Below are positions 28,372 to 62,625 of a DNA stretch of 64,000 nt, one piece after another. The translations under genes were made by a program, and so were the position numbers. How positions within the stretch are numbered: position 1 is the stretch's first letter; each line of letters opens with the position of its first letter. The DNA is from Escherichia phage RB43, in the sequence record NC_007023.1. One strand, given 5' to 3'. Under the pieces are notes generated by a model. That model had not been told where the DNA came from, did no database searches, and saw only the letters and a list, made by a program, of their open reading frames with translations.

Positions 28372-29035
28372 TTACTTGAACTGGCTGGTTGCTTCAAGTA
28401 CAACCACGTAGGCAACGCCATTTTCGGAAGAGAATTTTGCAGCGCCCTGTGCGGAGATCAACTTTGTAATCGCTGTTGATGAACTGCATGTTGTCAATTT
28501 TCATATCGAAATTGAAAACGTTGTCACCTTCATACTCACCAACTTCAACAGAGAATGTTGATTGGCTTTCTTTACTTTTCGCGGTGATTACCAGTTTGCC
28601 GTTGATTGGTTCAACAGACAGGTCGGTCAGTTTCATCATGCGTGATGCTTTGATCAGCTTTTCGAAATCGTTAGCGCTAATCTGGAAAATCAGATCCGCT
28701 ACAGGCATTTGCAGACGCTTTTTAGGTTTGACGATAGTCGTCGGATCACATGAACGCTCAACGATTTTCATTTTCTCTCCGCGAATAACGATTTCGCCAG
28801 TGGACAGATCGTGTTTTACGTCAGCATCAGTACCAACAACGTTCATCATGTTCAGGAATGAGTTCAGATCGTAGATACCTACATCTTCGTCGATTACATC
28901 GGGAATTTCGGCTTCCGCATAAACCACGCTGTTAATAGATTTCGTCATAATGAACGAACCTTTGGTCAGCATAATAGACGGGTTGATCTGGGAGAAGTTT
29001 TTCAGGATATCAATTGTTTGTTTTGAGAATTTCAT
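28372..29035 (-). CDS. 45: sliding clamp gp45, C-terminal frame broken at homopolymer 28445-28447
   Basis: N-term MKFSKQTIDILKNF as T4 gp45; listed ORF ends in non-homologous tail RCKILFRKWRCLRGCT, while +1 frame gives GAAKFSSENGVAYVVVLEATSQFK ending TAA 28374..28372. Confidence 0.8.
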
Positions 29036-40280: not shown

Positions 40281-41138
40281 ATGAAACAGTATCTTGATAT
40301 TATCAGGTTGGTTCTGGCAAATGGTGTTGAATCAACCGACCGCACTGGTGTAGGTACTATCCGTATCTTTGGTGCGCAAACCCGCTGGAACCTCGCAGAA
40401 GGTTTCCCAGCAACGACCAGCAAACAGCTATTCTTCAAACCGTGTAAGCATGAATTGCAATGGTTCCTGTCCGGTTCTACTAACGTTGATGAACTACGTG
40501 AAATGACCTGGGGAATAGGAAGCGATAAACGCACTATTTGGGACGATAACTACGAAAATCAGGCTAAATCGCTGGGATACTCTCATGGTTATCTGGGGCC
40601 AATCTACGGTCATCAATGGCGTTCGTTCGGTGGTGATTTGTATGGAAATCACAGCGTTGACCAGATTGCTCGGATCGTCAACGAACTGAAAACCACACCA
40701 GACGATCGCGGGATCATCGTTTCCGCATGGAACCCTGTTGATCTGGATAAAATGGCATTGCGTCCGTGTCACTGTTTCTTCCAGTTCGTCGTAATCAACG
40801 GTAAACTGTCTCTACAGTGGTATCAGCGTTCGGTTGATGTCTTCTTAGGGTTGCCGTTCAATATCGCCTCCTACGCTCTCCTGACGCATATTATCGCTGA
40901 TATTTGCGGGTACGAAGTAGGTGATCTGGTTTGGACAGGTGGTGATGTCCATATCTACAAAAACGCAATCGAGCAAGCGAAAGAACTATTGAAGCCGGAA
41001 CGTGAACCGTTACCGCTTCCGACCCTCTACATGCCGAAGGTAAATAGCTTACTTGATTTGGATCAAGAATTCTTTGACTCCATCCATTTGAAAGATTATA
41101 ATCATCACGGCTCGCTAAAAGCAGCTATGGCAGTATAA
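40281..41138 (+). CDS. td: thymidylate synthase
   Basis: Canonical ThyA motifs (DRTGVGT, ALRPCHCFFQF, YQRSVDVFLGLPFNIASYALL); uninterrupted. Confidence 0.9.
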   Translation: MKQYLDIIRLVLANGVESTDRTGVGTIRIFGAQTRWNLAEGFPATTSKQLFFKPCKHELQWFLSGSTNVDELREMTWGIGSDKRTIWDDNYENQAKSLGYSHGYLGPIYGHQWRSFGGDLYGNHSVDQIARIVNELKTTPDDRGIIVSAWNPVDLDKMALRPCHCFFQFVVINGKLSLQWYQRSVDVFLGLPFNIASYALLTHIIADICGYEVGDLVWTGGDVHIYKNAIEQAKELLKPEREPLPLPTLYMPKVNSLLDLDQEFFDSIHLKDYNHHGSLKAAMAV

Positions 41139-48309: not shown

Positions 48310-48574
48310 ATGATCGAACGTGAAAATGTAAATGTTATGGTTGAACTGGGTGATCGTGTTAAAGTTGACAATCCTGTAGATTTGCAACTAAATTAACCAG
48401 TTAGGCCAACGTCTTGTTGATCGGCTTCCTGCTGGTTATAATGTGAAACTTGTCCGTGACGGTCAGTTCTCCTTCCTGTTGGGGATCATTAGTCAACGTG
48501 GTATCGTTGAACAACAGTTCGGAATCCAATGGAATCCGGTATCTAAATTTGTTACTTGGGCTGGTGTCCTATGA
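48310..48574 (+). CDS. small protein, frame broken at AAA run near 48390
   Basis: ATG ORF stops after 28 codons; +1 frame continues 60 codons and ends TGA overlapping next ATG (ATGA). Confidence 0.3.
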
Positions 48575-51742: not shown

Positions 51743-52105
51743 ATGAAAGCGTATCAAATTTTAGAAGGTTTACATACTGGTACTATCTATCTGGAAGAAG
51801 GAAACGATGTTCGGATCGTAGTATCAAAAACTCTCGAAGTGGATTCAGTGATCGGAAAATCTCGCGTTGTACCATTCGCAAAACGTGAAGTTGATATTGA
51901 GTTTCAACCGACTGTTAAAGTTGAAGGTGGACAGCACCTAAACGTGAATGTGCTACGTCGCGAAACCCTGGAAGATGCTGTGAAACATCCTGAGAAGTAC
52001 CCACAGTTAACGATCCGCGTTTCAGGTTATGCAGTTCGCTTTAATGCACTGACTCCAGAACAACAGCGCGACGTTATCGCCAGAACCTTTACGGAAAGCA
52101 TGTAA
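51743..52105 (+). CDS. grcA: autonomous glycyl radical cofactor (GrcA/YfiD-like)
   Basis: C-terminal 70 aa nearly identical to E. coli GrcA as I recall it, including glycyl-radical signature RVSGYAV. Confidence 0.8.
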
Positions 52106-52329
52106 TGTCTATTGAAGATATCAAGGGGTATAAACCCCATACTGATGAAAAAATTACGATCGTGAATCGTATCAAAGCAGCAGAAAATGAACTGGGTGCT
52201 ATCCTGGATGATCTTGATAAACGATATTCAGGTGATTACGCCTGTTCAGATCTGGAATCACACACAGAAAAAGAACTTGATGAAATGCTCGAACGTACAC
52301 ATCAAATTCAATGGCAAAAGACCGACTGA
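52105..52329 (+). CDS. hypothetical protein (74 aa)
   Basis: ORF track; ATGA coupling to grcA-like gene. Confidence 0.45.
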   Translation: MSIEDIKGYKPHTDEKITIVNRIKAAENELGAILDDLDKRYSGDYACSDLESHTEKELDEMLERTHQIQWQKTD

Positions 52330-52392
52330 AAGAAGCCTCTATGTGGGCGTGTCGTGCGGTGTTCCAGCCAGAAGAAAACTATTAAAATCAAG

Positions 52393-52419
52393 CCGTTGCC
52401 GAAAGGTGACGGCTTTTTT
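52393..52419 (+). terminator. rho-independent terminator
   Basis: GCCGTTGCCGAAAGGTGACGGC followed by TTTTTT. Confidence 0.55.
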
Positions 52420-52485
52420 CGTTTATATCGAAAATAATGCTTGCGTTGAATCCGGCTTTCTTGTATCTTTAACCACGTAGGCAAG

Positions 52486-52543
52486 ACAACTTAACTTTGA
52501 GGATGACATTATGAACAACTTAACTTTGAGGATGACATTATGA
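52486..52543 (+). repeat. perfect tandem duplication of 29 bp containing SD and ATG
   Basis: ACAACTTAACTTTGAGGATGACATTATGA at 52486-52514 and 52515-52543. Confidence 0.85.
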
Positions 52544-52828
52544 AAACTTACAACATGAAAGACCTGGTTGCTTCAAAACTCGTCGTGAAGCCCGTGCGTA
52601 TGTTCTGGCGGCTGGTAAAAATACCTCTGCTGTAATCGACCTGGGTACTGATAAAGAGGTTGGTGCTCGTTGGGCCGCTGTTGTGGTTATCGCTGTCCCT
52701 GTTACCCCTGCTAAAACTCTGGTTCTGGGTGCTCGCAATAGCGAAACTTTGAACACCAGCACTTGCAATAACAGAGGAGTTCATAGTGTCAAAGTGTTCA
52801 AACGTCGCAGCATTGGTGCGAGGGCTTA
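52511..52828 (+). CDS. internal-protein-like gene (MKTY N-terminus), frame broken
   Basis: ATG 52540 gives MKTYNMKDLVASK... but stops after 31 codons; 94-codon frame without start runs 52536-52828 and ends TAA overlapping next ATG. Confidence 0.3.
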
Positions 52829-53038
52829 ATGATGGTAAATTTCAAAGCAGGTGATCTTATTTCACCAAAGAACCGAGAATGCATTAAAGAGTTCCCATAT
52901 TGGGAAAATCTGGAGATTGTATCTTTCTGCTCTGATTTGTGTGAAGCGGTAGTACGTCAAAAGGATGGTTGGATGTGTAATCATTTTAACCTCGACCCAG
53001 AATTTGGTGAAGAGTTCGAAGTTGTTGGGAGTGTATGA
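52829..53038 (+). CDS. hypothetical protein (69 aa)
   Basis: ORF track; TAATG coupling. Confidence 0.45.
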   Translation: MMVNFKAGDLISPKNRECIKEFPYWENLEIVSFCSDLCEAVVRQKDGWMCNHFNLDPEFGEEFEVVGSV

Positions 53039-53039
53039 A

Positions 53040-53162
53040 ATGAGCAAAACCAAAGAATTAGAACAGAAAGTATTGGGGTTCATGAGTAACAGCGAAGATC
53101 GCTATGCGAAACACCTCATTGTTGAACTGATCACCGAGTACGCCGCCGTGACAAAGAGATAA
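53040..53162 (+). CDS. hypothetical small protein (40 aa)
   Basis: ATG 1 nt after upstream TGA. Confidence 0.3.
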   Translation: MSKTKELEQKVLGFMSNSEDRYAKHLIVELITEYAAVTKR

Positions 53163-53240
53163 AGATCTGAAAGATGAAAAGCGTGTGGTTCGCGAGGTTG
53201 TTGTAGAACCAGTTGAATACAACTTTGGCCCTGGTGGTGC

Positions 53241-53471
53241 ATGATGCGATATGGTAAAAAAGACTATGTTCTTATAGTCGGTCAGCAATACGTAAAGCGT
53301 GATTTCTTCGGCGAACTGTTCCTTTCGAACAATCCTGAATTGATGTACTCATTCGAAACGGAAGAAGACGCGTATATTGCTAAGAACAACAGCAGAAATG
53401 CAGATATTCGTAACTTTGCTCGCGTATACGAGCGCAACACTTTAATAACTTACGAGGCATGTGATCAATGA
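53241..53471 (+). CDS. hypothetical protein (76 aa)
   Basis: ORF track. Confidence 0.45.
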   Translation: MMRYGKKDYVLIVGQQYVKRDFFGELFLSNNPELMYSFETEEDAYIAKNNSRNADIRNFARVYERNTLITYEACDQ

Positions 53472-53698
53472 AATACGTTTTAGAATATTGCGAACATGAG
53501 TTCACCGAAGACATGATGAACAAAATGCGGGTGTATAACCAAAATATTACCAGCATCACCCCTGTTACAGCTTGTCGTGAATTCGTGGGTTATTCGTTTA
53601 CGATTTACACAAATTCAGAAGATGACGCAACCGCATATCTGAAAAGCATTAATGCAATCTTCGACAAATTCGAAAAAGTATGGAAGGTAGGTTACTAA
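53468..53698 (+). CDS. hypothetical protein (76 aa)
   Basis: ORF track; ATGA coupling. Confidence 0.45.
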   Translation: MKYVLEYCEHEFTEDMMNKMRVYNQNITSITPVTACREFVGYSFTIYTNSEDDATAYLKSINAIFDKFEKVWKVGY

Positions 53699-53859
53699 TG
53701 AATTTTATCAACGCAGCATACAAGAAATTTTCGACGCGCTGGAAGCCTGGAAGACACGCACAGACGTTTCTATCACTTCGGCATCCAACGGTACTACATA
53801 CGACCGTTACGACCCTTCTCGTGGCTTACACAAGCCGTATGAGACTAAGGAATCAAAAT
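53698..53859 (+). CDS. small protein, frame broken near T-run 53703-53706
   Basis: ATG overlaps upstream TAA; coding-like -1 frame (QEIFDALEAWKTRTDVSITSASNGTTYDRYDPSRGLHKPYETKESK) ends TGA overlapping next ATG. Confidence 0.3.
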
Positions 53860-54154
53860 GAAGTATTACGGGTTTAAAACGAGTCATTACGGTAAAGCGT
53901 ACCGAACTGATAACATCGATCGCAAACGTCCGTATTATGATTCTCTGGTACGTGCAGGTCGTAAACGTGCTCGCCAGGAAGGGAAGAAGGAAGGAGAAGA
54001 CCGTGGTTGATAATTCAGATCTGAATGAAGCACTTCGTTCTATTACTGCGAATACTAAACCGAAAAAGAGAACAGGAGAAATCATCTTTTTATGTGTATG
54101 GTATTTTGTGTTTAGCTTTGTTGTTGGCGCTGCATTTGCGAAATGGTTCTTATA
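53859..54154 (+). CDS. small basic protein with C-terminal TM, possibly frame-broken near 54005
   Basis: MKYYGFKTSHYGK... 50 codons, then +1 frame encodes hydrophobic tail IIFLCVWYFVFSFVVGAAFAKWFL. Confidence 0.3.
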
Positions 54155-54595
54155 ATGGATATCGGATCAGGTAGTCAATACCCATCATGCGCATTGAGCA
54201 ACTTTGCACCGCATCCGTTTACATTCGACGGGGTAGAATGTGCATCAATGGAGGGCTTTTTACAAAGTCTGAAATTTAGCAATCCAGATATGCAAGCGCA
54301 TGTGTGTACTCTGGTCGGTAAAGCCGCGAAGTTCAAAGGCAAAAAGAAAAAATGGTGGACAACTCAAACCCTGTATTGGAAGGGTATTCCGATACATCGT
54401 GAATCCGAAGCCTATCAGATCCTTATCGAAAACGCGTACAATGCGTTGTTCCTGAATGAAGGGTTTCGCCGTGCGCTGAAAGCAACCGGAAAAAGTACCT
54501 TGACTCATTCAATGGGAAAGAATAAGATGAATGAAACGGTGCTCACTGAACGTGAGTTTGTGCGAAATTTAACCCGACTAAGGGATCTGTTATGA
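54155..54595 (+). CDS. NADAR (YbiA/DUF1768-like) domain protein
   Basis: N-terminal LSNFAPHPFTFDGVECASMEGFLQSLKF matches NADAR core pattern SNF..P....DG......E..FQ..KF. Confidence 0.55.
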   Translation: MDIGSGSQYPSCALSNFAPHPFTFDGVECASMEGFLQSLKFSNPDMQAHVCTLVGKAAKFKGKKKKWWTTQTLYWKGIPIHRESEAYQILIENAYNALFLNEGFRRALKATGKSTLTHSMGKNKMNETVLTEREFVRNLTRLRDLL

Positions 54596-54857
54596 GTGAA
54601 AAAGAAAGAGTAGAATGCGTGTTCCTGTTCAAAGGCGCGATTAATCCATTAGCGTTACTGTATGCACAACATGCATTACGTTCAACGTTGATTCAGAGTG
54701 TTATCTATAAAGGCAGGTGTGTATTATGTTACCATCGGCGCAAATAACATGGTTGTTATTGAATCCTATGTTAAGGAATGCGCATCAAACGGCGTTGTCT
54801 TTGATAAAGTCGATTTTGATGCTGGGGTAGATGCTGTTTATATGTATAAGGGTTGAT
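54592..54857 (+). CDS. small protein, frame broken near 54700
   Basis: ATG overlaps NADAR stop; two consecutive frames each coding-like. Confidence 0.3.
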
Positions 54858-55055
54858 ATGAGTTACGTAGTTTATTTTGATTGTTCGGATCTCGATCCGT
54901 TCGTTCTTCAACAGGCAAAGAAATATCATCAAGATGTCGTTGGCATTGGTGTAACAAATGATGATATGTTGTGCATCGAATTTGAATATTATCGGACATT
55001 TGAGCGTGAACAATTCCTGGGTGAATTGAATGCATTCAAAAGTACCCTTTCTTGA
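54858..55055 (+). CDS. hypothetical protein (65 aa)
   Basis: ATG (MSYVVYFD) after TGATATG. Confidence 0.4.
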   Translation: MSYVVYFDCSDLDPFVLQQAKKYHQDVVGIGVTNDDMLCIEFEYYRTFEREQFLGELNAFKSTLS

Positions 55056-60891: not shown

Positions 60892-62625
60892 TAATGGCTA
60901 AAAACCCATATTACAGCGACGAACAACGTCGCAGGATGCAAAATCCACAACAGCCACAACCCACCGTTCGTAAGATTAACGCAACGTTGGATAAGGCTTC
61001 AATGAACGAATTGAAGGACATCAACAATAACACTCTTGAAACCGCGCTGAATACGCTGGATATCAAAGAGGGTATGAAGTCCTTTGAAGATAGATTTAAA
61101 GACAAATTTGCAGGGTTTAAAGAGCAATTCGAACAGGATCAGGAACCTCTTGCAGAACAGTTACCTGATTTTGTCGGCCCCGCACGACCTGCATCACTGA
61201 CAGACAACAGCACAACCACTGTTGACAATTCCGTTAGTGTAAGAAACCATCCGTTTAGCAAGCTGGAAGAACATACAGGCACTATTGCAGAAGCGATAAC
61301 ATCGTTTATCGCTCTTGCAAGCAAGAAGCCGGAACCAGCACCTGAACCGGAACCCGTGCCGGAAGAAGAACCAGAAGTTGATAAGACGAAGAAGAAAATT
61401 CGTGATAAAGACAAAGACGAGAAGAAATTCAGTAAACGTGTATTAGCATTGCTTGATTCAATCAAAAACAATACATCAGGGATACTGTCTCGCTTTATTG
61501 GTTATTCACTCGAAGCACTGGCTAAATTCGCTAAGTGGACATTGATTATTGGTAGCATTGTATTCGCGATCGACGTTCTGGCTAAGGTTGTTCAGAAGTG
61601 GTTCCAGGATATTCTAAGCGAGGGTGAAGCCTCGAAAGAATTGTTCGGATCATATTTCAAGAACATCAAAACACTTGCTGAAAAAATCAATGATGGTCTG
61701 GAAAACTTCGATATGAGCAATCTGGGCGACTCACTGAAAAATCTCTTTTTGGAACCGTTCAAAGTTCTGGGTGATACGATTAAAACCGCTATCACTGAGG
61801 GTATCGGTAATCTGATTTACGCACTGGGTGAATATACCGGATCGGAAACCATTACTGATGCAGGGCGCGGAATGAAAGTATCTGCGTTGCGTGATAAACA
61901 GAAATATGGTTTAGAGATTGATCAGGATGACCTGATTATGCTCAAAGAGCAAGAAATTCAGGATCAGAAAGATAAGATTGTTGAAGCCCGTTCTCAACTT
62001 ACGGATCAGGTTAAAGCGACACAGGGCGCGTTCTCCTATAGTTTCGGGAAGCAGACAGACGCACAGAAAGCATTGTCTAAGCAACTCGAAGAAATGCGCG
62101 ATCGTGTTTCTCTGGAAGAACAGATCACGAAGGAGAAAGAAAAGGAACTCCAGATGCTGAAAGACAACCCTACTCTGTTAAAAGAGCAGGTGCAGAAGGA
62201 GAACACCGAGAACCGGAAACGTGTTGATGATTCTAAGCAGATCGAAGCAGCACAGCAGACAAGCTAAACCAAAAGCCGAAAGCGAGTTTGATCGAGGTGA
62301 AGAAATTTTGGGTAAAGACGATATCACCGCGAAAGATAAAGAGTTGATGGATAAGATCATGGAATCTCTTGAAGAGAAAAATGCTACCCAAAAACTCGAC
62401 GAAGACGATCGCGAAAAATATCGTGCGATGCTGGAACAATGGCAGAACAAGATTGCAGTAGTACCGGAAAGCAGCGCACCAATTGACAAGCAACCGGAAC
62501 CTGTGAGAGCACCAGTTGATGCAGTTGCTTCTAACAACGTCCAGGTAAACCAAAAAACAGTTAATAACATGGTACAACATTCAGTACAACGCACTGAACG
62601 TAAGCCATTGATTGCATTAGCATAA
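60888..62625 (+). CDS. 29: baseplate hub / tail-length protein gp29-like, frame broken near 62259-62267
   Basis: 459-aa ORF 60888..62267 plus +1 frame continuation to TAA 62623-62625 totals about 579 aa; coiled coil and hydrophobic segment; precedes gp48/gp54. Confidence 0.55.

Follow-up and report, generated by a model that had tools for sequence, protein, structure and literature searches.

The window examined here is a stretch of 64,000 nucleotides from Escherichia phage RB43 (record NC_007023.1). The locus of interest comprises a small, basic early gene of the phrog_7596 family (52540-52829, plus strand) together with the leader which precedes it. In megablast searches, positions 52300-53100 of the window match the RB43 records (Pseudotevenvirus) at 99.9% identity. 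The next-best matches are the Citrobacter phages Miller, CfP1 and Xman at 96.1%, and many T4-type phages of Klebsiella, Enterobacter and Cronobacter are matched further down. According to the Miller annotation, the locus is flanked by the genes of a gp31-like co-chaperonin and a gp30-like DNA ligase. Its surroundings form a run of small rightward accessory genes whose content varies between relatives, and this part of coliphage RB43 is a plastic, accessory-gene region.

A glycyl-radical cofactor gene (GrcA-like, 120 aa) lies at 51743-52105 and matches Pfam Gly_radical (E 3e-18). Just 5′ of the locus, a homologue of the anti-CBASS sponge Acb2/Vs.4 occupies 52105-52386 (Pfam PF24729, E 6e-8). 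In both RB43 records this homologue is cut to 74 aa, against 93 aa for the Miller gene, and the cause is a one-nucleotide deletion (CAATGG versus CAATTGG, T at 52312). Because it is common to both RB43 records the frameshift is probably real, and RB43 may do without a full-length Acb2.

The transcription unit which includes the Acb2/Vs.4 homologue ends at an intrinsic terminator (52390-52421, plus strand) composed of an 11-bp stem, a GAAA loop and a T run. The terminator scan places the stem at 52390-52415, followed by TTTTTCGTTT. This element is conserved in Miller, RB16, Lw1, the Klebsiella phage CPRSA (Slopekvirus) and two UViGs. It is followed by a sigma-70-like early promoter candidate (52441-52469, plus strand) with a -35 hexamer TTGCGT (52441-52446), a 17-nt spacer and a -10 hexamer TATCTT (52464-52469). 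These hexamers were read by eye and lie below the threshold of the promoter scan. In the alignment, CPRSA has at this place another sequence that is closer to the consensus, TTGACT-17-TATAGT. The T4 late-promoter consensus TATAAATA occurs 0 times in the 64-kb window against 2.6 expected by chance, which is uninformative for the locus. It is missing from the window although baseplate genes are present (gp27-, gp28-, gp48- and gp54-like, ~59-64 kb), and the late promoters of RB43 may follow a variant of this motif.

The terminator and the putative promoter would together constitute a cassette of the PeSL type. PeSLs combine an early promoter with a stem-loop and flank ORFans in the hyperplastic regions of T4-type phages (Arbiol et al. 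2010, PMC2839356). The likeness lies in the terminator hairpin directly before the sigma-70-like candidate, in the small orphan gene and in the variable region. In addition, the gene is ~99% identical between two genera while the promoter segment is different, as expected from cassette shuffling. However, PeSLs were defined in RB49 and phi1, where GGGG...CCCC stems are often found, whereas the RB43 stem is GCCGTTGCC/GGTGACGGC. Furthermore, the 801-nt segment that contains the locus and its cassette is not repeated in positions 25,000-179,836 of the other RB43 record (RB43-GVA) or in the whole window, and the duplication described below lies downstream of the cassette and not at a PeSL crossover. 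An indication of ‘2 places in record’ for the RB43 match is probably an off-diagonal self-match of the tandem repeat, since no second locus was found.

The coding sequence of the small gene is ~99% identical across genera, as seen when RB43 and Miller are compared with CPRSA (1712-2006, aligned to window 52540-52829). The promoter and the leader upstream of the same gene are replaced in CPRSA relative to RB43 and Miller. This combination of coding identity and a replaced upstream segment fits a recent horizontal exchange of the gene cassette. The CPRSA record also has a +C frameshift of its own (GCTGTACATCG) which splits the gene into two annotated CDSs.

Between the candidate promoter and the gene, a 29-bp unit, ACAACTTAACTTTGAGGATGACATTATGA, is present in two identical head-to-tail copies, 52486-52514 and 52515-52543 (both plus strand). 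Tandem Repeats Finder (TRF) reports a period of 29, 2.3 copies and a score of 123. The first-pass annotation had described a perfect tandem repeat, and indeed no mismatch is found over 52486-52543. No further copy of the unit exists in the 64-kb window when up to 5 mismatches are allowed. A perfect head-to-tail repeat of 29 bp is far beyond chance.

The duplicated stretch contains a Shine-Dalgarno sequence, an ATG and one more base. In each copy GAGGA is separated by a 7-nt spacer from the ATG: the first has its Shine-Dalgarno sequence at 52499-52503 and its ATG at 52511-52513, the second at 52528-52532 and 52540-52542. The two ATGs are 29 nt apart and hence lie in different frames, as had been noticed from the first reading. 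Copy 2 is the initiation region used by the gene, given that the RB43-GVA CDS is annotated from its ATG and that relatives use the homologous ATG. Copy 1 is an extra initiation region specific to RB43. The duplication also creates a 10-codon upstream ORF (52511-52543, plus strand; MNNLTLRMTL and a stop) which the first reading had missed and which may be translated. Its TGA (52541-52543) overlaps the ATG at 52540 as ATGA. At its other end, the 96-codon gene meets the next small gene (69 aa, phrog_20662, 52829-53038, plus strand), annotated in RB43-GVA and Miller, through a TAATG stop/start overlap.

The small gene and the missing base

In the window the gene appears split into a 31-codon ORF and an open frame at 52536-52829. 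Translation from the ATG at 52540 yields MKTYNMKDLVASKLVVKPVRMFWRLVKIPLL, which begins MKTYNMKDLVASK, ends in LL and stops after 31 codons (52540-52635); this early stop had been reported correctly. The third frame stays open from 52536 until the stop codon 52827-52829 and overlaps there with the next ATG (52829). Here the first-pass annotation was right about the open frame and about its TAA overlapping the following start. However, it had counted 94 codons at 52536-52828, while the frame has 97 codons and its stop is found at 52827-52829 instead of 52826-52828.

A one-base deficit separates the two frames. The window reads TT at 52568-52569 (plus strand), whereas TTT is found at this site in RB43-GVA, Miller, a CfP1-type contig, RB16, Lw1, CPRSA and two UViGs (IMG/VR). 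In the alignment, CTGGTTGC of the window stands where RB43-GVA, Miller and CPRSA all have CTGGTTTGC. The deficit falls in the TTT run at codon 10. Restoring the T produces an intact 96-codon gene from the second ATG, and the same gene is annotated in RB43-GVA and Miller. Homopolymers in 52570-52600 had already come under suspicion: a T is indeed lost from such a run, but the lesion lies just upstream of this interval, at 52568-52569.

The restored protein has 96 aa and a pI of 10.5. With the frame-restored sequence of RB43-GVA, the match to phrog_7596 extends over the full length (E 3e-59, residues 1-96 against positions 1-96 of a 96-position profile). The search for homologues combined two word-indexed runs with an exhaustive profile search of 1.84 billion representatives. 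The homologues include 29 clusters of proteins of 93-102 aa, 63-98% identical, to which the exhaustive profile search added only about a dozen more short relatives. Together the searches yielded only ~46 clusters; their members are short relatives encoded in phage genomes or uncultured contigs, and the size range of the phrog_7596-type family is 52-134 aa. The gene neighbourhoods of distant members gave no clue to function. Four further matches were spurious and concerned repeat proteins such as beta-propellers. Neither Pfam nor NCBIfam contains a match for the protein, the PHROGs that it matches are all families of unknown function, and structure searches in the PDB and BFVD returned no match.

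The conserved core of the family begins at F12 with F-x-T-R-x-x-A-R, followed by D-x-G and G-x-R-W. After the core come a variable linker and a basic C-terminal segment resembling a beta-hairpin. The better AlphaFold model has a pLDDT of 67, with ~80 for the N-terminal domain, and shows a beta-alpha-beta-beta mini-domain. The adjacency to the Acb2/Vs.4 homologue allows a host-interaction role for this protein.

Is the frame break a property of the phage or of the record? An alignment of 38.6 kb of the window with RB43-GVA shows 12 single-base indels but only 2 substitutions. Ten of these 12 indels are a T or an A missing from the window. With Miller as outgroup, RB43-GVA has the ancestral state at every site for which the local alignment permits the comparison (10 of 11 sites). 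The indel sites in the window are 28458, 48393-48395, 52568, 53139, 53160, 53719, 54712, 55051-55052 and 62260. Seven of the 12 indels fall within 52568-55052, and this clustering suggests that the assembly is weak there. The indels interrupt several ORFs, including several small ones, which RB43-GVA has in intact form. The indel at 28458 splits the sliding-clamp gene (gp45-like), and the one at 62260 splits a gene of 576 aa that takes the place of gene 29 in T4; both identities derive from the Miller annotation and from position. T4 cannot do without its genes 45 and 29, and a viable plaque-forming phage should therefore not carry these two frameshifts.

An indel to substitution ratio of 12:2, one-sided, is the signature of base-calling error. 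The missing T at 52568-52569 belongs to these 12 one-sided indels; most likely it reflects an erroneous base call in the record and would thus have no biological meaning. We consider it unlikely that the T was truly lost and that the gene is a fresh pseudogene with a 31-aa product, dispensable in the laboratory. The gene does have a plastic neighbourhood of small accessory genes, the CPRSA record has its 1-nt insertion in this very gene, and the neighbouring Acb2 homologue, frameshifted in both RB43 records, attests that real frameshifts occur here. Nevertheless, the excess of indels over substitutions, their derived state on the window side and the breakage of the gp45-like and gene-29-position genes all fit base-calling error better. 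Programmed -1 ribosomal frameshifting or transcriptional slippage across the break is next to negligible as an explanation: a -1 shift within 52540-52635 would bring the two frames together, but RB43-GVA and all relatives have a single frame, the difference is simply one base, and no X XXY YYZ heptamer can be read in 52540-52635.

The apparent gene without a start is consequently best read as an artefact of the record, the intact 96-aa gene being already annotated in RB43-GVA and in relatives. Users of the window record should prefer RB43-GVA or re-polish the sequence in view of the further indels, which affect the gp45-like and gene-29-position genes among others.

Origin and effect of the tandem duplication

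The window and RB43-GVA (HE858210.2) carry the duplication in identical form. A search with 52470-52575 matches 171 phage records, of which the two from RB43 are the only ones to cover both copies collinearly, and the duplication is found in none of Miller, CfP1, Xman, RB16, Lw1 and CPRSA. In the alignment, Miller, RB16, Lw1, CPRSA and two UViGs have a single copy with otherwise near-identical flanks. About 29 other records cover the 52470-52575 query as two overlapping pieces spanning 78 nt, and therefore also have a single copy. The 30-nt junction sequence has 0 exact matches in IMG/VR and 0 in JGI metagenome contigs, while the single-copy version of the junction has 5 matches in IMG/VR. These records indicate that the duplication is real and confined to RB43. 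Since the copies show no divergence from each other, it is also recent. A recent rearrangement of the initiation region had been proposed in the first-pass annotation together with a comparison with relatives, and both are answered by these data: all non-RB43 relatives have one copy, the closest ones included, and the RB43 lineage has two.

Spontaneous short tandem duplications arising by slippage or unequal exchange are classic in the rII and lysozyme frameshift genetics of T4. The RB43 repeat resembles them in being perfectly head-to-tail, tens of bases long and lineage-specific, with undiverged copies. It differs in two respects. The microhomology at the junction amounts to only 1 nt, and the mechanism of duplication is for this reason not evident from the sequence. 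In addition, the repeat covers the untranslated leader and the start codon and does not fall inside a reading frame, so that the duplication itself leaves the gene intact. Slippage between ACAACTTA and AAAACTTA was considered as an origin and rejected, as their spacing is 28 nt and not 29.

We propose that two separate changes affected the locus. In the RB43 lineage, a 29-bp stretch with a Shine-Dalgarno sequence and an ATG was copied head to tail. The downstream copy still starts the 96-aa gene normally. The upstream copy would start the 10-codon mini-ORF, which crosses the second ribosome-binding site and ends at the ATGA overlap. Given this layout, ribosomes could reach the gene by two routes: by initiating at the second site itself, or by termination-reinitiation after use of the mini-ORF. 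Separately, one T of the TTT run at codon 10 would have been lost from the record, and the gene would for this reason look out of frame.

Overlapping stop/start junctions (ATGA, TAATG) are common between early genes of T4-type phages. Like translationally coupled ORFs, the 10-codon ORF has a TGA which overlaps the ATG of the gene, and the stop of the gene in turn overlaps the next ATG. In contrast to coupled upstream ORFs, the 10-codon ORF is an accidental by-product of the duplication and is not conserved. The Shine-Dalgarno heptamer UUUGAGG (52496-52502 and 52525-52531) is exactly complementary to CUUCAAA at 52571-52577, in codons 11-13. This 7-bp pairing is weak and is predicted whether the leader has one copy or two.

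The duplication is most likely a recent product of replication slippage or unequal exchange, and its effect would be neutral or mildly expression-modifying. An adaptive role, in which the added Shine-Dalgarno sequence and start codon and the coupled leader ORF change and probably raise translation of the early gene, seems improbable. One route to such an effect would be a second Shine-Dalgarno sequence that the downstream CUUCAAA cannot sequester, given that UUUGAGG can pair with this segment and that only one copy is pairable at a time. The ATGA overlap has the geometry which supports termination-reinitiation, and the duplication has been kept in two laboratory lines. Yet about one third of such duplications would give a TGA overlap by chance, and the two lines share one isolate, so that retention says nothing on selection. 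Moreover, no other relative has the duplication, and the predicted leader RNAs, with one or with two copies, are not more stable than shuffled sequence (z = +0.84 and +0.96). The more specific proposal that the duplication was selected, retuning expression of the early protein whose gene directly follows the Acb2 homologue (itself truncated in RB43), with the protein as a possible host-takeover or counter-defence factor, appears less probable still.

It is very unlikely that the 29-bp duplication is an assembly artefact. Mis-joined reads can yield short perfect tandem repeats and, if RB43-GVA was assembled along a reference, a false duplication might in principle have been carried over. However, RB43-GVA was propagated for ~20 years in Geneva on K-12, apart from the Toulouse stock (PMC3157838), and its record does not copy the assembly of the window, since the two differ at 14 positions in 38.6 kb. 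The duplication is nevertheless present both there and in the gfp-derived record HE981739.1, which matches the whole 106-nt query collinearly in one piece. RB43-GVA also corrects the 12 other indels, which argues that reads drove its consensus.

Internal-protein resemblance and nature of the locus

The internal proteins of T4 carry the capsid-targeting sequence (CTS) MKTYQEFIAE. Residues 4 and 7 are its main targeting determinants, residues 8 and 10 govern processing, and the prohead protease gp21 cleaves after L/I-x-E (PMC9026906). From the MKTY start, the first-pass annotation had suggested an injected internal protein. This suggestion is not supported: the agreement is confined to residues 1-4, and the protein has neither an L/I-x-E site nor a match to an internal-protein family.

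The restored protein starts MKTYNMKDLV and is identical to the CTS at 4 of 10 residues. Residue 4 (Y) agrees, and positions 7, 8 and 10 are K, D and V, not F, I and E. No L/I-x-E cleavage site is found in the 96-aa protein or in any of 31 close family members, and the few distant members which contain the motif have it far from the N-terminus. The N-terminal lead before F12 differs within the family: it can be MKTY, MKRSY, MKAY or MKTTY, it can be absent, or it can be 50 aa long. No internal-protein family is found among the PHROG matches.

The wider window also helps to calibrate the resemblance. MK is the commonest start among ORFs preceded by a Shine-Dalgarno sequence (28 of 151). MK-x-Y starts are also present on an ORF at 40281, at the position of the homologue of td (thymidylate synthase), and on the glycyl-radical cofactor gene. 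The first ten residues of the GrcA-like protein resemble the T4 CTS at least as much as those of the 96-aa protein do, which makes MKTY a weak cue. Overall, the MKTY resemblance would appear to be a chance match of four residues.

That the gene encodes a capsid-targeted, injected protein like IPI, IPII or IPIII of T4 is thus highly doubtful. The 96-aa protein has in common with these its MKTY start, its small size and basic character (pI 10.5) and a place in a plastic region of a T4-type genome, and it adjoins the homologue of the counter-defence gene Acb2. It differs in having no sequence or fold similarity to them, as seen in the PHROG, PDB and BFVD searches, in the mismatch of CTS residues 5-10, and in an N-terminus that is variable or even absent in relatives. 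L/I-x-E is lacking from the protein and its close family, and MK-x-Y starts occur on enzymes in the same window. Furthermore, the gene lies outside an IP-type locus, between the gp31-like and gp30-like genes. An early promoter alone is no argument against an internal protein, since the IP loci of T-even phages are likewise associated with early promoters (PMC2839356).

Taken together, the locus probably consists of an ordinary small early gene, a 29-bp duplication of the RB43 lineage and one base missing from the record, and does not encode a T4-type internal protein. It combines a real but ordinary, lineage-specific duplication of an initiation region with a probable sequencing error that mimics a broken gene. 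Nothing suggests that the duplication is more than a neutral lineage marker, and its use would be at most to separate RB43 from Miller- and CfP1-type phages. It offers a small natural example of how the copying of an initiation region may create a coupled leader ORF.
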